Below, in pieces: positions 10,336-18,606 of a DNA stretch of 32,000 nt (the first letter of the stretch is position 1; each line of letters starts with the position of its first letter). A model generated the notes under the pieces. It did no database searches, was not told the origin of the DNA, and was given only the letters and a program-made list of their open reading frames with translations. The translations under genes and the position numbers were made by a program. The stretch comes from Candidatus Omnitrophota bacterium (GTDB taxonomy: Bacteria > Omnitrophota > Gorgyraeia > Zapsychrales > JANLHA01). The stretch spans positions 1,410,001 to 1,442,000 of the forward strand of contig OY759724.1 of NCBI GenBank assembly GCA_963662715.1. The letters run 5' to 3'.

Positions 10336-10410
10336 GGCCCCATCGTCTAGCCTGGTCCAGGACGTATGGTTCTCAGCCATAAAACGCCGGTTCAAATCCG
10401 GCTGGGGCTA
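10336..10410 (+). tRNA. tRNA-Glu, anticodon CTC
   Basis: GGCCCCATCGTCTAGCCTGGTCCAGGAC..., typical tRNA-Glu D-arm. Anticodon stem TATGG/CCATA with loop TTCTCAG (anticodon CTC). T-arm CCGG-TTCAAAT-CCGG. Acceptor GGCCCCA/TGGGGCT plus A. Confidence 0.9.
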
Positions 10411-10411
10411 T

Positions 10412-10451
10412 AAATATAAGGGGACACCCAAAAGGGTGTCCCCTTATATTT
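10412..10451 (+). terminator. Perfect 18-bp hairpin immediately 3' of tRNA-Glu (terminator-like)
   Basis: AAATATAAGGGGACACCC - AAAA - GGGTGTCCCCTTATATTT. Confidence 0.6.
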
Positions 10452-10923
10452 AAAACTCCAACTCTTTGACCGGCAATCGGAGATATCGGCGACCGAGCGT
10501 TGCGAGGCAATTCAGAAAAGGTCATCCGAGCTGAGCGAGGAAGTGGTTGAGCAGGGGCGAAACCATTCCAAATCCGGCAGTATAAAAGGGGGACTCTTTT
10601 GAATCCCCGTTATTATTTCTTCTAACTCAGAAATTTTCCTTTTTGTATCCCCAAAACCATGGAAATATTACAGGAAAATAGATTTTTTGCGAGGCCTTTT
10701 CAAGAGTGCTTGTAATTCAAAAAATTTTATATTTATGTTAAGAAAAGTCAGATTTTGGTCGTATCGGGCCATTGACAGAGAGAAAAATAAGGATGATACT
10801 GTATGATATTTCCAGGTGTTTTGAAAGATCGGTAATATTATGCGTCGTAACTATTTAGCAGTATAAAAAAGGACAAAAGAGATTTTTTATTCAATAAAAA
10901 CCGGATATTTGGAAAAAAACACA

Positions 10924-11000
10924 CTATAACAATACATCACGATATCACCCAATAACAAAATTCAATATTAATAAGTACGACGTAGAAGAAATTGTTAGAC
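10924..11000 (+). repeat. attC-like recombination site (site 0) ending in core GTTAGAC
   Basis: Starts CTATAACAAT (inverse-core-like) and ends AATTGTTAGAC. TAACAAT/ATTGTTA pair as the base of an imperfect palindrome. GTTAGAC fits GTTRRRY and lies 7 nt before the ORF at 11008. Confidence 0.5.
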
Positions 11001-11007
11001 GAAGAAA

Positions 11008-12021
11008 ATGATGAAAAAACTCATAGAAGATTTTCAAAAAATAGCCACCACGATAACAGAGCTAACAAAAATATCTGACTTAACAGCAGAGCATGATATT
11101 TTATCAAATGCTGAACGACATATCGAAATAACAGGCTATGACAATTGGGATGGCGGGTCAGATATCCACACAGTATACTTGCAAATACCCATCGAGCTTT
11201 ACTCTAAATATGAGTCAAATTTAGATAAAATAGAAAAGACAATTAATTCTAAGTTTCAACCCATTCTTCGCAATTATCCGAATGAGTATATAAACGATGT
11301 TGTAATTACACCGCGCCTTGTACAAGCGAAAGCTTCTGTTCAAACAGAATACACTCAACAAGAAAAACATGCATTTATAAGCTATCAGACAGCTGATAAG
11401 CATGTTGCAGGAAAAATAAAACAATTATTAGAGGGTATTGGTATTGAAGGTTTTTTAGCACATGAAGACATTGACGTTTCATTAGAATGGCAAGATGAAA
11501 TATTAAAAAATATGGCAAAATCTTCTCTATTTATTTGCTTGTTAAGCAGTAATTATTTAAATTCTTTTTGGTGCATACAAGAATCGGGAATGGCAAGGTT
11601 TAAGAACTCTACAGTCATCCCGTTGACATTAGATGGCACTGTTCCGCCCGGTTTTATTTCAAAGTATCAAGCAGTAAGAATTGATCCTGAAAGACCTAGA
11701 ATACATGATCTTATCCCTGGATTGATGAAATATAATAAATTTGATGTCTTAGAAATAATTATAGAAGTAATTGGATCGTCGAGAAGTTTTCGTGGCGCAG
11801 AGTCTAATTTTGAATTGATTTTGCCATATTTAAATGATTTAACCGAGAAACAGGCTAAAAGTTTGCTAGAAAAAATAAGACAAAACAATCAAGTGCATCA
11901 TGCAAGTCTTTGTGCAAATGAATACATCCCAAAAGTGCTTAAGAAATATGGCAATTTAATCTCTGAAGATGACTTGGAGTTTTTAAAAGATAGATGTAAA
12001 GAATATAATGGAGACGTCTAA
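11008..12021 (+). CDS. TIR-domain protein (unknown N-terminal ~115 aa, TIR, helical C-terminal ~120 aa)
   Basis: TIR core at residues ~120-210: HAFISYQTADKHVAGKI...LFICLLSSNYLNSFWCIQESG...VIPLTLDG. The SxWCxxE motif carries the conserved catalytic Glu (E192, nt 11581-11583). Confidence 0.8.
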   Translation: MMKKLIEDFQKIATTITELTKISDLTAEHDILSNAERHIEITGYDNWDGGSDIHTVYLQIPIELYSKYESNLDKIEKTINSKFQPILRNYPNEYINDVVITPRLVQAKASVQTEYTQQEKHAFISYQTADKHVAGKIKQLLEGIGIEGFLAHEDIDVSLEWQDEILKNMAKSSLFICLLSSNYLNSFWCIQESGMARFKNSTVIPLTLDGTVPPGFISKYQAVRIDPERPRIHDLIPGLMKYNKFDVLEIIIEVIGSSRSFRGAESNFELILPYLNDLTEKQAKSLLEKIRQNNQVHHASLCANEYIPKVLKKYGNLISEDDLEFLKDRCKEYNGDV

Positions 12022-12090
12022 CAACTCAATCCAGCGGACCTCCGGGGCAGCTGCGCGCCCCTTCGAGCCGCTGATTTCGTTGCGTTATAG
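12016..12090 (+). repeat. attC-like recombination site (site A)
   Basis: GTCTAAC (12016-12022, fits RYYYAAC and overlaps the stop codon) is the exact reverse complement of GTTAGAC at 10994. The GC-rich imperfect hairpin pairs CAGCGG/CCGCTG and GGGGC/GCCCC, with bulged bases. It ends GTTATAG (12084-12090). Confidence 0.6.
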
Positions 12091-12111
12091 GAAATAAATA
12101 AAAAAGGAGAA

Positions 12112-12786
12112 ATGCTCATGTCTCGAAGTCCATATAAAATGCCTTCTGTGTTTGTAGCCTGCCCTTATGATGAAAAGAAATTTAAATTTTCTTCGTTTAA
12201 GAAAGAATTGGCGTCCCTTCCTTTTAGCATCGAATATGCTGATACAAATTTGGAAACAAAGCACTTAATGGAAAAAATAAAACGTCTTATAAAGGCTGCA
12301 GATTTTTCTTTCTTTGACTTGTCATCTTGGAATCCAAACGTTGCACTTGAATTAGGTTTAGCAGAAGGAGTTAAATCTTCTTATTATATTTTGGTAAACT
12401 CGAAGATGAACAAAGATGTTCCTTCCGATATTAAAGGGATTCAAAGAATAGAATATTCGTCCCTTCAAGGAAATGAGAGAAGTCTCCGTTCCCAAATAAT
12501 TCAATATTTCTTTAAAAAGAATTATTCTCTGACAAAAGATTTGTGGACAAAATTGTCTCGACATAAAAATGCTCATAAAATATTTGATTTTGGGTTGCGT
12601 GTTCTCGCCTTTCTACGAGATCACGATGCCATAGAACATGCCGATTTTAAAGAAATTTCTAGAGGACTATATGTTAGGCTTGAGGATCAGGAACATGTTA
12701 TAACAACTCTTATAAATATAAAGGCGTTAAAAAAGGCCTATGGTCGCGAAGAATACTTATTAACAAAATCTATATATAAGAAATGA
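12112..12786 (+). CDS. TIR-like / nucleoside 2-deoxyribosyltransferase-like domain protein with a possible C-terminal winged-helix
   Basis: SVFVACPYD...KIKRLIKAADFSFFDLSSWNPNVALELGLAEG resembles the (V/I)F(I/V)...AD..I.D.....NV.(F)ELG.A.G signature of COG4271-type TIR-like and deoxyribosyltransferase-like folds. The AAGGAGA RBS at 12104-12110 favours the second ATG (12118) as the start. Confidence 0.45.
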   Translation: MLMSRSPYKMPSVFVACPYDEKKFKFSSFKKELASLPFSIEYADTNLETKHLMEKIKRLIKAADFSFFDLSSWNPNVALELGLAEGVKSSYYILVNSKMNKDVPSDIKGIQRIEYSSLQGNERSLRSQIIQYFFKKNYSLTKDLWTKLSRHKNAHKIFDFGLRVLAFLRDHDAIEHADFKEISRGLYVRLEDQEHVITTLINIKALKKAYGREEYLLTKSIYKK

Positions 12787-12788
12787 CC

Positions 12789-12830
12789 CTATAACAATTC
12801 ATGTGTTCTATCGTAGATGAAAATTTATAA
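12789..12830 (+). repeat. Short, degenerate attC-like site (site B)
   Basis: CTATAAC (12789-12795, 3 nt after the stop) is the exact reverse complement of GTTATAG at 12084. AATTCAT pairs with ATGAA(AA)TT. The expected GTT core is TTTATAA (12824-12830), so the site is probably inactive. Confidence 0.4.
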
Positions 12831-12833
12831 AAA

Positions 12834-14465
12834 ATGACGTCACCTAAAAAGCGCGCTCAAATACTGCAAGATCATCTTAAAAAAGGTAATACTTTTTTCC
12901 CTCCTTTTACTTTTAAAGAAGGCATTGGTCGGTTTGACGAAATCAACTGGCGGGCAGACTTTGTTCCAGAGCTAATTTGGATTGCATTATTGATTGAGGA
13001 ATATGGATTCGATAAATCAAAAAATTTAGCCTGTGCTTTGGCAATATTGTCAATGCAACTCCGTCAAACTGAACAACTACCAGATTTTGGAATGGTATCA
13101 GCCTATGAACCACTAGGGGAAACGACAAAAAGGAATATTAATAAACACTTAGATTCAAAGGGAGTGTTGCAAGAAATATCAAAGCCATTGGTGCCATTGG
13201 TAACACTCTATCCTGATTGCCCATTAAGTTTTTTGATCGAAGGAGAAAAGAATAGATGTTCTGTCGATCACGCCAGCACAAAGGTTGCTCCAATTCTTGA
13301 AGAATGTCTTTACCGTGGTGAAAAATTGCCAACTCTTGTTCAAGCTGTTTATTATGAGCTGTCAATCGCTTCCGGAAAATTGAAATTCGTTGCTCCATTA
13401 GGCCCTCACAATACAGATCCTATTAAAGAATACCCCAATACAGACGAATCAAAAAGGTTGGCTAGCATGCTTAGGGCCAACGCTTGTCATATGACAGCAA
13501 TGGGCCATTCAAAGAAATGGGTTCAATATTTCTGGAGAAAAGGTCGTGATATTGGCCCTTGTGTGCCTAAAAAATCTTCTGACCTTCATCTGAATGATTT
13601 CCCTCAAGAATTTATTTTATACAACACAGAATGTTTCAAACAATATCATGATGGTTGTAATAAGCTATGGGAATATATCGAGCGAAACTATGTGATTGAT
13701 TTTTACTCTCCACTGCGTGACGAAATTCGCCTTAGTCTATTTTGCCGTATTTATCGCCTTACTGTCCATGTCGTAAGTTTTATCCCTAATTGGACAGAGG
13801 ATATAGCTGAAATATTTTTGCGAATGATTATAGAATCATATATTTACTATATGTGGTTCAAAAAAAATGGCACGGAAGAATCATATGAGAAATTCTATGT
13901 GTATGGCCTTGGGCAACAGAAATTAAGAAAAGAACACATATCAAACTATCTCAAGAAGCAAGGTGTTCCCGAGGAGGAGATAGAACAACAGAATCCCGGT
14001 CTCTCATTTCTTAAAAATCATAAAATGGATGAATTTATTCCAGTGAATATTGGAAATCCGCTGGACAAAAATCTTCGAATTATTGCAGAGGAGGCAGATT
14101 GCCGTGAAATTTACTCATTAATTTTCTCACCAGCGAGTTCTGCTATCCATGGAATGTATGATTCCTTAGAAAGGTTCTATTTGAAAACATGCCTAAATCC
14201 ATTCCATTGTTACCATAAAGTTCCATATTATTGGTCCAAATCAGCTGTGTCGAGTTATGGGGTGATTAACTGCCTTGAATTCACTGACTGGATTTTTGCT
14301 GATTTGGTGAAGGATTTAAATGGTAAATTGCCGGATAAAATGCCAGGTGAAATCTATATTGAGAACCTAAACGACAATAAGGCGCTCGAGGAGTTTACCA
14401 AAAGAGATGATGTGCAGGAGTGGATTAATTTATCTGCACAATTTAGAAACAATGTAAAGGAGTAA
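12834..14465 (+). CDS. Hypothetical protein, 543 aa, no domain recognised
   Basis: Long uninterrupted ORF in an AT-rich context, on the same strand as its neighbours and 4 nt after site B. Predicted mostly helical. No catalytic motif I can name and no obvious SD. Confidence 0.6.
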   Translation: MTSPKKRAQILQDHLKKGNTFFPPFTFKEGIGRFDEINWRADFVPELIWIALLIEEYGFDKSKNLACALAILSMQLRQTEQLPDFGMVSAYEPLGETTKRNINKHLDSKGVLQEISKPLVPLVTLYPDCPLSFLIEGEKNRCSVDHASTKVAPILEECLYRGEKLPTLVQAVYYELSIASGKLKFVAPLGPHNTDPIKEYPNTDESKRLASMLRANACHMTAMGHSKKWVQYFWRKGRDIGPCVPKKSSDLHLNDFPQEFILYNTECFKQYHDGCNKLWEYIERNYVIDFYSPLRDEIRLSLFCRIYRLTVHVVSFIPNWTEDIAEIFLRMIIESYIYYMWFKKNGTEESYEKFYVYGLGQQKLRKEHISNYLKKQGVPEEEIEQQNPGLSFLKNHKMDEFIPVNIGNPLDKNLRIIAEEADCREIYSLIFSPASSAIHGMYDSLERFYLKTCLNPFHCYHKVPYYWSKSAVSSYGVINCLEFTDWIFADLVKDLNGKLPDKMPGEIYIENLNDNKALEEFTKRDDVQEWINLSAQFRNNVKE

Positions 14466-14541: not shown

Positions 14542-14943
14542 ATGAATATTTTTAAAAATGAAATTTATTGTGTAGTTTTTCCTGAAGAATTTCGATTTAA
14601 GTCATATGGGAAAGAGAAAAATCTAAAGACATTTATTGATGTCTCGGAGGGAAAGAATCCTAAGGTAATCGCTGTAGGTGAAGATGTTTCTCATCAAGAA
14701 CCATTTAATAGAGTGTATTTATTTAAAACTACTGAAAATAATTTAAAATTAAAGAAAAGTGAATATTTAACTGCCTATTTTAAGTATGCTTTTAAAAGCG
14801 TTTTTAATAAATTTGTTGTAGTAAGACCAACAATAATTTTTGAGAACACATCCAGCTTGAGTTCAATCTTAGGCGGTTATGAGAAAGATATCCTTGAGCA
14901 CGCATCATTGAGTGCAAGTGCTTTAAAATGTATATTTAAATAA
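14542..14943 (+). CDS. Hypothetical protein, 133 aa
   Basis: ORF on the same strand, 76 nt after the previous gene, with a double stop TAATAA. No recognisable motif. Confidence 0.4.
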   Translation: MNIFKNEIYCVVFPEEFRFKSYGKEKNLKTFIDVSEGKNPKVIAVGEDVSHQEPFNRVYLFKTTENNLKLKKSEYLTAYFKYAFKSVFNKFVVVRPTIIFENTSSLSSILGGYEKDILEHASLSASALKCIFK

Positions 14944-15126
14944 TAAACGGCTAACAAGTCATCCATGAAAACAGTCATCTGGTCAAGCATAAAATAGAAA
15001 GGCCAAATCATCCATTCGCGCTATATTCCCCCAAAGGACTTATGCGCACAATAGCGTATTATGACAGGGCGTGCCAATCACTACAACGGCCTTAAATATG
15101 CCAGAGTTGTTAACAGCATCACCCAT

Positions 15127-16134
15127 TTATACTGACCGATATTTATACTCACAGTTGTTTTTCAAAACAGCAAAAACAGATTTTAACAGCTTATGAGCAA
15201 CAGCAACTATAGCGACACCGTAATCTTTTTTAGTTCGAATCTTCTGAAAATGAGTTTGTAAATATATATCACGGCGCACAGCGGTTTGAGCCGCTTCGAC
15301 AAAAGCAGTGCGTAAGTATTTATTGCCATCTTTAGTAATAGGGCCTGAATAATAGCTTTGACCTGATTGATGGACACGAGGAACAATGCCGGCGTAACGG
15401 GCAAGTTTATGCGCATTCTTAAAGCGGGAGATGTCACCGATTTCAGCCAGGATGACATGAGCAAGAATAACCCCTATACCAGGGACAGTGTAGAGTAACC
15501 GAGCCTTAGAATCGACTTTGATGTTCAGACGGAGACGAGAATCGATTTTGTAAATATGCCGGGAGAGAATATCGATAAAGGAGAGATAATCGGCAATCAT
15601 GGAAGAATAAGGTTGCCGTAAGGATAATTGATTTAAGAAGAGTTTGCCGGAAACACCGAAGAGGTCGCTGAAAGAATGCTGAATACCCTGATAATCAAGG
15701 ATAGCATGAATACGATTTTTGAGGCTAGTGCGAATGGCGATCAAACGGTGGCGATACCGCATCAAAGCACGAGCATCACGATGAAAGCGGGAAACACGGT
15801 AAGCTTTGGGCAAGAGATCGGCTCTCAAGAGGTCAGCTAAAACAGAAGCAGAGATTTTATCGGTTTTAATGCGTTGTTCGGCAATAGCCTTAGTTCGCGC
15901 GGTATGAGCGAGAGAAACATCTAAGCCGGCCTCTTCAAGCAAGTCACCGAGCCAAAGGTCAAAGCCAGAGGCTTCCAGTGCGACAGAAGAGTTATGAGGA
16001 AGGGCTTTAAAATAATTTTTCATAGCATCTTTCTGAAAGTGATATAATTTTGTTTGATCGATGCGGTTGCCATTCTGATCTTTAACGACAACATACGAAT
16101 ACTTTTTGTGTTGATCGATTCCGATGTAATACAT
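15127..16134 (-). CDS. IS110-family transposase/recombinase
   Basis: MYYIGIDQHKKYSYVVV (DEDD RuvC-like N-terminus), ...ALEASGFD..., C-terminal YAGIVPRVHQSGQS / ITKDGNKYLR (IS116/IS110/IS902 domain). Start moved to the ATG at 16134, which has an AGGAGG RBS; the track's 16179 start lacks one. Confidence 0.9.
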   Translation of the reverse strand: MYYIGIDQHKKYSYVVVKDQNGNRIDQTKLYHFQKDAMKNYFKALPHNSSVALEASGFDLWLGDLLEEAGLDVSLAHTARTKAIAEQRIKTDKISASVLADLLRADLLPKAYRVSRFHRDARALMRYRHRLIAIRTSLKNRIHAILDYQGIQHSFSDLFGVSGKLFLNQLSLRQPYSSMIADYLSFIDILSRHIYKIDSRLRLNIKVDSKARLLYTVPGIGVILAHVILAEIGDISRFKNAHKLARYAGIVPRVHQSGQSYYSGPITKDGNKYLRTAFVEAAQTAVRRDIYLQTHFQKIRTKKDYGVAIVAVAHKLLKSVFAVLKNNCEYKYRSV

Positions 16135-16330
16135 ACGTGCCTCCTTTCTGGAAGGTTGTGGTTTTTGGCTTAAAATCATTATACGCCTTCCAGAGGCACG
16201 TTTTCATACTATCACTACAGCGGTGCGCTTCGGCACCTTCGGCAGCCTCAAGACCCAGTGGGCGTGTGGCGTATCTCCTCAAAAATTGGACTGAAAGTAA
16301 TTAGGGAGACAAAATAGCTTTTAATATAAA
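16135..16330 (-). ncRNA. Candidate IS110 bridge/guide RNA region in the 5' non-coding end
   Basis: Dense secondary structure. ACGTGCCTC..CTGGAAGG (16135-16156) pairs with CCTTCCAG-AGGCACGT (16185-16200) and occludes the RBS. A second hairpin is GGTGC-GCTTCG-GCACC (~16223-16238). The position matches the IS110 subgroup, where the ncRNA lies upstream of the recombinase. Confidence 0.35.
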
Positions 16331-16914: not shown

Positions 16915-18606
16915 ATGATAGAAGATGTTAAATTGAAAGAATGGTATCAAAGCAATAAAGAAAATGAAAGGAATGGTCTGGCAAAGATATTAGACGTGGA
17001 GTATGCGCATATAAAGCTGCGGGAGGAAGATGACCTGTATATTACTGCTGAAGGGTTGGCCTTTATCGATAATTTAATGCCGGAGAATTTTTGGACCGAC
17101 AAAGAATGGGTGAGGGAGAATTCAGAGCGGTTGTCGGGGACAAGCACTGTTTATAAGATCAGGACCAAAAAAGTGGGCGGTAAGCAGATAGAGCTTGTCG
17201 TTAAATGGAACCGGATGGGCCAGGATGTGCCCGGGGCGGAAGACTGTGAAGACTTGATGAGCGCTGAATTTAACAGCCCTTTTGAGGAATTTTCATTGGT
17301 TTTTGAATTAAGGAAAATAGTTCATGATTCAATGGAGAATATTTTTATACAGAGGCCTTTGGCGATATTCGTTCCTTCCGAATCTGTCGAGTTGTGGCAG
17401 AGCGGCAGAAAAGAGTATAAGATGCGGAACAAGATCGAGTCGCACAAGGATATTATGTTGGACATGTTCCGTTCTTACGCGGTTATATATTTATGGGTTC
17501 CGGGGATCGATTTAACGCAGGCCCTGAAAAAGGATTCTTTAAAGGAGAAAGACCTGAAACTGTTGACTCGGGATGCGCAAAAGAAAATGTTCGAAAACGG
17601 TTATGTGGTTAAAGATCATAAGCCCCAGCATGTCATTGTTAACTCGGGGAAGGAAGGAGGCTTGAAAAGAAACGCAAACGGGGAAATAGAATATGCTTTG
17701 GTTGATTTTGAATTGCTTCAGCGGACTTTCGAGAAGGAAGAAATGGTTAAGAAGAACAAACGCACGGATTATTTAAAAAGACAAAAAGACAGGTTTAATA
17801 TAGAAACCCCGAAGAAGTTTTACCCGTATTTGAACCACGTGAGTATTTTTGATGTCGCGTATATCTTTGGGCATGTCGAAAGCACGAAAGGAAGATTGTG
17901 GGTTTTGGGAAAAGACCCCTGTTTGTTCGACTATTTCCTCCCGGAACGATGGGAGCAGAGGCCCAGGACGAAAATATCGGTTCTCAATGCCATGTATTAC
18001 ACGATTTCCAAAGATAATATCCACCTTGTCTGGAAAGTGTCCAAGGTCGGCTCCAGGCCCGACATGGATCCTTTTAAAGAAGATGAAAAGAAAATACTGG
18101 ATTATGGCTATAACAGCCCTTTTGAAGAAGCTGCGATAGCCCTTGAACTTGAGCAAAAAGGAATACCCACGATCAGTCCGAGAGCGATATATATGACTTC
18201 GAATGAAATAGACATGTCGGCACATTTGCAGGATAATTCGCGTTACGATAATCATAAAAATTTGTTTGATCCTGACGGGGCGGCCATATTAAGAAAAGAC
18301 CGCGATTACATAAGTATTTGGGGATACTGGCGCGGACCCATCGAAAAACTGGCTCAAAGAGACGAAGATTATCATGAGGGGATGAATATTTTAAAGGCAT
18401 ACAGAGAAAGAATTATCAATGAACAGCAATATTTAAACCTGCTGCAGACAGCAAAACAAAGATTGCTGCATGCGGGCTTTGAGGACCTTAATCTTAGGGG
18501 AAACCATTTGATGATTTCTTTTGACAGTCACAATAATCTTATTATGGATGATTCAGGCCTGCCTGAAATTAGAATATGTAATTTTGAGTTTCTTAAGAGA
18601 ATTTAA
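16915..18606 (+). CDS. Protein with two tandem RIO/Kdo(WaaP)-like atypical kinase-fold modules
   Basis: Internal duplication: FNSPFEEFSLVFELRK ... DHKPQHVIVN ... LVDFELL, and YNSPFEEAAIALELEQKGIPT ... EDLNLRGNHLMIS ... ICNFEFL. These resemble the N-lobe helix, catalytic loop and DFG-equivalent of Kdo/RIO-type kinases. Confidence 0.4.
   Translation: MIEDVKLKEWYQSNKENERNGLAKILDVEYAHIKLREEDDLYITAEGLAFIDNLMPENFWTDKEWVRENSERLSGTSTVYKIRTKKVGGKQIELVVKWNRMGQDVPGAEDCEDLMSAEFNSPFEEFSLVFELRKIVHDSMENIFIQRPLAIFVPSESVELWQSGRKEYKMRNKIESHKDIMLDMFRSYAVIYLWVPGIDLTQALKKDSLKEKDLKLLTRDAQKKMFENGYVVKDHKPQHVIVNSGKEGGLKRNANGEIEYALVDFELLQRTFEKEEMVKKNKRTDYLKRQKDRFNIETPKKFYPYLNHVSIFDVAYIFGHVESTKGRLWVLGKDPCLFDYFLPERWEQRPRTKISVLNAMYYTISKDNIHLVWKVSKVGSRPDMDPFKEDEKKILDYGYNSPFEEAAIALELEQKGIPTISPRAIYMTSNEIDMSAHLQDNSRYDNHKNLFDPDGAAILRKDRDYISIWGYWRGPIEKLAQRDEDYHEGMNILKAYRERIINEQQYLNLLQTAKQRLLHAGFEDLNLRGNHLMISFDSHNNLIMDDSGLPEIRICNFEFLKRI

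Follow-up and report, generated by a model that had tools for sequence, protein, structure and literature searches.

Aditi is a validated anti-phage system of two proteins, DitA and DitB (Millman et al. 2022, 10.1101/2022.05.11.491447), in neither of which its authors found a recognisable domain (10.1101/2022.05.11.491447); it was still unclassified, or without a known mechanism, in a 2024 preprint and in a 2026 review. Integron cassettes serve as reservoirs of small defence systems (10.1101/2024.07.02.601719; 10.64898/2026.03.17.712381), the latter source citing Kieffer et al. 2025, Darracq et al. 2025 and Getz et al. 2025 for defence genes in cassettes and in clusters of attC sites lacking integron integrases (CALINs), and they also carry many non-defence functions (10.64898/2026.03.17.712381). 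A pseudo-attC with a mutated crossover point is known for a Tragantia homologue that resides in a defence island, outside an integron (10.1101/2024.07.02.601719). Here, we analysed a 32,000-nucleotide (nt) stretch of a Candidatus Omnitrophota bacterium genome (contig OY759724.1, positions 1,410,001 to 1,442,000; hereafter the window, with positions counted from its first letter), in which the gene of a 543-amino-acid (aa) DitA-like protein follows that of a 224-aa protein, downstream of a TIR-domain gene. No conserved module is formed by the 224-aa and 543-aa genes, and a sensor–effector pair finds no support; the array that holds them is probably a decaying series of cassettes with independent, defence-like genes.

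Linkage of the two genes in other genomes

Relatives of the 224-aa protein (the 224 family) were sampled at 40 loci from species-representative genomes of many phyla, with loci in Acidobacteriota, Planctomycetota, Verrucomicrobiota, Omnitrophota, Ignavibacteriota, Chlamydiota, Leptospira and Thermoplasmata, and at four metagenome loci (80%- and 64%-identical homologues). None of the 44 loci carries a DitA-family open reading frame (ORF) near the 224 relative, as judged by six-frame translation and a broad DitA hidden Markov model (HMM) that detects canonical DitA at 230–299 bits. BLASTP clustering of the neighbours reveals no recurrent partner of the family, and among the 141 ORFs that flank its members a Pfam scan detects each family at most twice and no recurring cyclase family.

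The survey of the 543-aa clade recovered ~17 distinct contexts, none of which has a 224-like gene nearby, even at E ≤ 10. No partner recurs in these contexts, with all-against-all BLASTP of the neighbours matching identical contigs only. A 78%-identical homologue is preceded by a gene for a 207-aa membrane protein and a 75%-identical one by a gene for a tetratricopeptide-repeat protein, while an MmeI-type enzyme, a type I S subunit, a BsuBI/PstI endonuclease, an HNH protein, a reverse transcriptase and a large helicase are encoded upstream of other clade members; one member is followed by a phospholipase D-type nuclease and a methyltransferase. Restriction-modification (RM) or nuclease genes adjoin the clade in at least 6 of the ~17 contexts. 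DNA similarity between the window and the loci of its homologues is limited to the coding sequences and does not extend into the flanks.

DitA-like genes of 40–42% identity lie directly 3′ of an MmeI-type or type I RM gene set (L001/L062 and L063). These two different contexts hint that the DitA-like clade is recurrently tied to RM loci.

A first-pass annotation, made from the letters of the window without database searches, had read the pair as a sensor-plus-effector arrangement. With no co-occurrence in the 44 and ~17 contexts and no conserved neighbour, that arrangement finds no support. The same annotation had named two observations that would speak against its proposal, namely missing linkage to the 224-aa gene and membership of the 543-aa protein in a housekeeping or metabolic family: conserved linkage is indeed missing, but the homology of the 543-aa protein is to a defence family, not a housekeeping one.

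Cassette boundaries and the site between the genes

In an integron array, the first bases of a cassette are the TTRRRY of a G↓TTRRRY core, and they complement the RYYYAAC (R″) in the attC that closes the same cassette on its 3′ side. Four co-oriented ORFs, encoding the TIR, 224-aa, 543-aa and 133-aa products and separated by gaps of 90, 47 and 76 nt, make up the array in the island (Table 1). Such a consistent pair of core sites is present around the TIR gene and the 224-aa gene but around neither the 543-aa nor the 133-aa gene. The TIR gene is enclosed by GTTAGAC (10994–11000), 8 nt before its start, and GTCTAAC (12016–12022), overlapping its stop; the 224-aa gene is enclosed by GTTATAGG (12084–12091), 20 nt before its start, and the reverse complement CCTATAAC (12788–12795), right after its stop. 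The CTATAAC element is more than chance: CCTATAAC and its reverse complement GTTATAGG occur in the 32-kb window only at these two places, flanking the 224-aa gene. The only two other passes of this consistency test in the window involve a poly-T/A heptamer and an AT-rich heptamer, neither of which comes with an attC hairpin.

The best-formed site of the window is attC site 1, between the TIR and 224-aa genes, with a bottom-strand fold of −15.3 kcal/mol (z-score −1.4). Between the 224-aa and 543-aa genes, the 47-nt spacer has the sequence CCCTATAACAATTCATGTGTTCTATCGTAGATGAAAATTTATAAAAA, in which CTATAAC occupies 12789–12795 and TTTATAA 12824–12830. This site resembles attC-like site 0 upstream of the TIR gene, sharing a 5′ half, CTATAACAAT-CAT, and a 3′ half, CGTAGA-GAAA, and the two are paralogous; exact CTATAACAAT is found only at 10924 and 12789, both in intergenic spacers. 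The R boxes of site 0 pair in the bottom-strand fold. At 12789, the AAC half-site is kept, the GTT is lost and the central stem is missing, with a fold of −1.2 kcal/mol (z +0.2). Functional attC sites combine conserved AAC...GTT triplets, an imperfect palindrome of at least 57 nt and a foldable bottom strand. Because its GTT is lost, it measures only 42 nt and it forms no stable fold, the spacer element at 12789–12830 is best called a pseudo-attC, which makes the earlier reading of it as a decayed attC plausible.

No attC is recognisable after the 543-aa gene. A composite cassette was considered and rejected, with no consistent outer core sites enclosing the 224-aa and 543-aa genes, the 543-aa and 133-aa genes or the whole array. 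Since the 224-aa and 543-aa genes lack an outer pair and the 543-aa gene lacks a core pair, their fusion is attributed to local decay and not to a transferable two-gene cassette. The attC idea of the first pass is largely right and accounts for the two genes standing next to each other. As for its suggestion that the two cassettes have become fixed as one unit, with the attC at 12789 eroded they can probably no longer be excised one without the other in this genome, as a product of local decay and not as a selected two-gene system.

In 10 of the 44 loci of the 224 family, the NNNNAAC at the stop is matched upstream by a GTTNNNN that complements it exactly, versus 2.45% in position-shuffled controls, and most of the 10 passing loci have R″ within ~10 nt of the stop and a textbook attC on both sides. 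Sphaerotilus uruguayifluvii (L041; NZ_JABSNM010000041.1, 1–2145) holds a TIR / 224-like / TIR array with classic attC sites between the genes (GCCTAGC...GTTAGGC and GCCTAAC...GTTGGGC), the only other locus in which a TIR gene neighbours the 224 family. Two DitA-like genes (L056 and L058) are single-gene cassettes with attC hairpins of 58–62 nt (z −2.5 and −3.6). Judged by such boundaries, the 224-aa and 543-aa genes each occur elsewhere as an independently mobile single-gene cassette.

The two proteins and their island

The 543-aa protein, described in the first pass as an orphan in which no motif could be placed, contains Pfam DUF5677 (PF18928) at 68 bits against a cut-off of 27.1 and matches the PADLOC DitA model (PDLC03826) at E 1.8e-28, with residues 10–470 aligned to model positions 5–448 of 486. 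Like the 224-aa protein, it belongs to a genuine, conserved family. It has 31 close relatives, and a full HMMER scan returns 1701 cluster representatives at E ≤ 1e-3 and 394 at E ≤ 1e-30. NCBIfam holds no model for the protein, and viral contigs contain no relatives of its family. The AlphaFold model is all-alpha, with a predicted local distance difference test score (pLDDT) of 79; comparison with the PDB gives no match better than E 0.7 by fold and nothing significant by sequence.

Canonical Aditi was verified on one C. difficile and one S. salivarius plasmid, with a 488–490-aa DUF5677 DitA (709–733 bits) and a 354–356-aa DitB (396–399 bits on the DitB model, as a positive control) encoded downstream of ditA and overlapping its 3′ end. 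The PADLOC DitB model matches no ORF neighbouring the 543-aa gene (E ≤ 0.1–10). A home-built DitB HMM, made from the two verified DitB proteins, finds nothing in the six frames of the window and of every sampled 543-clade locus. By homology, the 543-aa protein is a distant, DitB-less relative of DitA.

Alignment of 134 DitA-family members, including canonical DitA from the verified Aditi loci, reveals ten polar residues conserved in 87–100% of the members: R214, C243, R330, K363, R415, S435, H439, C453, H458 and H461. These may constitute a catalytic or ligand-binding set together with a Cys/His metal site. Many DitA-family proteins of ~245–265 aa (representatives P0249–P0294) cover only the N-terminal half (positions 3–248) of the 543-aa profile, and others of ~215–270 aa cover only the DUF5677 half (269–467). 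The family thus also occurs as two separate proteins.

The 224-aa product carries VFVACPYD at residues 13–20 and AADFSFFDLSSWNPNVALELGLAEG at residues 62–86. Its true start is probably the ATG at 12118 and not that at 12112, yielding 222 aa; the database protein P0032 begins at this second ATG, homologues begin with MSR, MAR or MAK, and ATG 12118 is better spaced than 12112 from the GGAG at 12106–12109. The family comprises at least 179 relatives, each of ~225 aa, with no Pfam or NCBIfam model matching the protein and no relatives in viral contigs. Across 30 members, C17-P18-Y19, D69, W73-N74, N76-V77, E80, G82, D106, G109 and Q111 are invariant or near-invariant; within the conserved motif FDLS-WNPNV-LELG, D69 and E80 are invariant.

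The AlphaFold (AF2) model of the 224-aa protein (pLDDT 85, predicted TM-score 0.85) comprises an alpha/beta domain at ~residues 12–120 and, C-terminal to it, helices plus a beta-hairpin in a winged-helix-like arrangement. Foldseek against the PDB places DNPH1/Rcl at the top (E 5.2e-4, probability 1.0, target TM-score 0.71), with further matches to nucleoside 2-deoxyribosyltransferases (NDTs), BcmB (a CMP N-glycosidase) and the SPARTA and TIR-STING TIR domains; across DNPH1, NDT, BcmB and TIR the probability is 1.0 and target TM-scores span 0.65–0.71. Among viral models (BFVD), a CAP12/Pycsar TIR-domain protein matches best, and a CMP/hydroxymethyl-CMP hydrolase comes next. The protein is thus predicted to have an NDT/DNPH1/TIR-like fold with a winged-helix-like tail, in agreement with the TIR- or deoxyribosyltransferase-like domain and winged-helix tail proposed in the first pass. 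Fold alone does not establish membership in a named family, the sequence-level matches being weaker: PHROGs gives phrog_3634 (E 1.9e-8), whose function is not annotated; the PDB by sequence gives nothing significant, with weak Fur and MCM8 winged-helix matches to the C-terminus (E 0.4–0.6); and an hhalign alignment sets the invariant E80 (LELG) against the YELG of human DNPH1 at E 0.12 only.

The TIR protein matches the PADLOC models spbK (3e-7), ThsB (1e-7) and PD-T7-3 (1e-8). Its N-terminal region and TIR domain resemble SpbK, and its residues 246–317 resemble PD-T7-3, so that the protein looks like a mosaic of two single-gene defence proteins.

Outside the island, the window is ordinary chromosome of 45–52% GC, with carB-, purF- and pyrG-like genes, two-component systems and a tRNA-Leu; within the island, at ~10–15 kb, GC falls from 47–50% to 33–39%. 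A strong terminator hairpin (10403–10460) lies 3′ of the tRNA-Glu, and the low-GC island extends from there on. A simple scan detects no terminator-like site on the + strand between ~10610 and 16185, and the promoter-like match at 10772–10800 may drive the TIR, 224-aa, 543-aa and 133-aa genes, which are probably co-transcribed, given their co-orientation and the lack of a terminator between them. No tRNA-derived direct repeats that could serve as island att sites were found. The ORFs, the quoted motifs, the upstream TIR gene and the 42-nt CTATAAC...TTTATAA spacer of the first-pass annotation all lie where it placed them.

Table 1. Coordinates of features in and around the cassette array of the window
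Feature	Position	Strand	Remarks
tRNA-Glu (CTC)	10336..10410	+	ARAGORN and Rfam
Sigma-70-like promoter match TTGACA-17-GATACT	10772..10800	+	Upstream of array; consensus match only
attC-like site 0	10924..11000	+	R″ CTATAAC ... R′ GTTAGAC; AT-rich, weakly structured
TIR-domain protein, 337 aa	11008..12021	+	Pfam TIR_2 5e-17; SpbK/ThsB-like
attC site 1, 76 nt	12016..12091	+	R″ GTCTAAC, GC-rich imperfect palindrome, R′ GTTATAG
224-aa protein gene	12112..12786	+	ORF; predicted NDT/DNPH1/TIR-like domain and winged-helix-like C-terminal domain
Pseudo-attC, 42 nt	12789..12830	+	R″ CTATAAC; R′ degenerated to TTTATAA
543-aa DitA-like all-alpha protein gene	12834..14465	+	DUF5677 at residues 299–450
133-aa ORF	14542..14943	+	No family match; co-oriented
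IS110-family transposase	15127..16179	-	Pfam Transposase_20 2.8e-27, DEDD_Tnp_IS110 1.2e-15; far boundary of island

The 133-aa ORF is a singleton in the protein collection. An R″-like GGCTAAC is present at 14949–14955, 6 nt past its stop, and no R′ that matches it lies between there and the IS110-family transposase gene. Sites of the attC type are targets of some IS110/IS1111 elements, and the last attC of the array may have been interrupted by the IS110 insertion. A transposase related to that of the window lies ~4 kb from the 224-like gene in another sampled locus (L024). Just past the IS110 element, a 563-aa ORF (16915–18606, +) has no match in Pfam, PADLOC, NCBIfam or PHROGs; the GTTAAAT/ATTTAAC core pair around it is probably due to chance, consisting of an AT-rich heptamer with no attC hairpin after the ORF.

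Alternative readings and comparison with known systems

In the reading that we favour as the likely one, the 224-aa and 543-aa genes are two independent single-gene integron-type cassettes that adjoin each other in a short array, which is low in GC, lacks an integrase, is partly decayed (CALIN-like), has been inserted after tRNA-Glu and is bounded by IS110. The TIR protein would be an SpbK/ThsB-type NADase; the 224-aa protein would be an enzyme of the N-glycosidase type whose substrate is a nucleotide, a nucleoside or an NAD-like compound, Asp69/Glu80 being its candidate active site and the winged helix a module for binding nucleic acids or ligands, or for regulation; and the 543-aa protein would be a divergent DitA acting without DitB. 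The first three genes of the array would then provide autonomous accessory functions, likely anti-phage, as suggested by homology, by the abundance of RM and nuclease genes around members of the DitA-like clade and by the published cassette reservoirs.

Several observations weigh against this reading. Defence function is argued from homology and context only, and for the 224 family no match to a validated defence model reaches its threshold: PF10137 scores 23.1 bits on the 224-aa protein versus a cut-off of 24.7, covering only profile positions 76–118 of 119, and the PADLOC 'Effector TIR' model matches at E 4.6e-5 over 48 residues. The DitA match of the 543-aa protein is distant (97.6 bits versus 709–733 for canonical DitA), and Aditi requires DitB in the only tested system. 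On the side of the DNA, shuffled sequence folds as well as site 0 and the site at 12789 do, a consistent core-site pair for the 543-aa gene is lacking in the window, and neither flank of the 133-aa ORF shows a recognisable attC. No integron integrase or tyrosine-recombinase domain occurs in the 19 larger window ORFs scanned, so that an integron origin is argued from attC logic alone. Nor does the lack of linkage elsewhere prove that the two proteins do not cooperate here.

Such cooperation would have the 224-aa protein sense or process a nucleotide signal, perhaps from the TIR protein, and control the 543-aa protein as effector, the cassettes having been welded for joint function. It would account for the co-orientation of the genes, their 47-nt gap without a terminator, the degenerate attC between them, the defence-related look of both proteins and the missing DitB of a protein whose family normally needs a partner. 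We nevertheless consider it very unlikely, given that the families do not co-occur, that the closest homologues (80% for the 224-aa and 78% for the 543-aa protein) have different neighbours, that each gene travels alone as a cassette, that the canonical DitA partner is encoded downstream, overlaps ditA and is unrelated to the 224-aa protein, and that no outer attC pair surrounds both genes. Quite unlikely, too, is a further reading, in which an autonomous DitA-like cassette without DitB and an anti-phage 224 cassette that cleaves a nucleotide (NAD or a modified deoxynucleoside monophosphate) have been caught being welded into a co-transcribed pair.

A Thoeris-like pair, in which the TIR protein makes an ADP-ribose-derived signal that the NDT/SLOG-like domain of the 224-aa protein binds, with the winged helix as output and the DitA-like gene as bystander, is highly improbable. 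The TIR gene stands directly upstream, and TIR genes also flank the 224-like gene of S. uruguayifluvii, but this adjacency is confined to 2 of 44 loci, in both of which each gene is a cassette by itself and has its own attC. Nucleotide-binding Rossmann-like sensors are related in fold to the 224-aa protein, while its invariant Asp/Glu pair is typical of NDT/TIR-type domains that are catalytic and not merely binding. The TIR protein matches ThsB weakly and the Thoeris type III ThcB4 model of NCBIfam at 36.8 versus a cut-off of 220; the 224-aa protein matches no ThsA model at E ≤ 10. It is also unlikely that neither gene serves defence, the 224-aa protein being an accessory nucleotide-salvage or sanitation enzyme or a regulator and the 543-aa protein having some other accessory role, with the look of defence stemming only from cassettes and islands. 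Metabolic N-glycosidases and transferases head the structural matches of the 224-aa protein, which would suit this account, as would the lack of a validated defence model above threshold, the unknown mechanism of DitA, the absence of both families from viral contigs and the many non-defence functions on integron cassettes. It sits poorly with the RM and nuclease neighbours of the 543-aa clade, with the full-length homology of the 543-aa protein to an experimentally validated defence protein family, and with the 224 family being sporadic across phyla, devoid of conserved metabolic neighbours and placed between TIR cassettes in two loci.

What the favoured reading of independent cassettes offers is two cassette-borne genes, one for a relative of DitA that lacks DitB and one from an NDT/TIR-like, winged-helix family that is unclassified, and not a new two-gene system. 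If confirmed, a DitB-less DitA clade of ~545 aa on single-gene cassettes would provide a simpler handle on the mechanism of DitA, and the invariant Arg/Lys/Ser/His and Cys/His residues of the family would be targets for mutagenesis; the 224 family, cassette-borne across many phyla and without a Pfam or NCBIfam model, would be a candidate cassette-borne defence gene. The locus would be a clean example of an integrase-less cassette array in which attC erosion fuses neighbouring cassettes, and such welding of two cassettes, if true, would be a route for assembling multi-gene defence systems inside integrons.

Compared with integron cassettes and CALINs, the array of the window has the same short co-oriented genes with attC-type sites between them, defence-type cargo, and cassette starts that complement their own R″, and its pseudo-attC with a mutated crossover point corresponds to that of the Tragantia homologue. 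It differs in having no intI in the window, only one well-folded attC and three to four cassettes, and in adjoining a tRNA gene and being bounded by IS110. The N-terminal domain of the 224-aa protein has a predicted flavodoxin-like fold in common with the NDT/DNPH1 (Rcl)/BcmB superfamily and the CAP12/Pycsar TIR-like domain, and its D...E-L-G motif, over which the weak PF10137 match also lies, may occupy the position of the superfamily's catalytic Glu strand-loop. Differences from the NDT superfamily are the lack of a Pfam NDT match and the added winged-helix-like C-terminal domain. In contrast to effectors of Pycsar and of cyclic-oligonucleotide-based anti-phage signalling systems (CBASS), the 224-aa gene is not adjoined by a cGAS/DncV-like nucleotidyltransferase (CD-NTase) or pyrimidine cyclase gene, its neighbours being TIR_2, the DitA-like gene, the 133-aa ORF and IS110. 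The 543-aa protein, ~55 aa longer than canonical DitA, is homologous to it over nearly the whole model, with DUF5677, an all-alpha fold, the lack of a solved structural relative and the invariant residues in common. Whereas canonical Aditi joins two genes, the 543-aa clade consists of solo genes, sometimes carried as single-gene integron cassettes.

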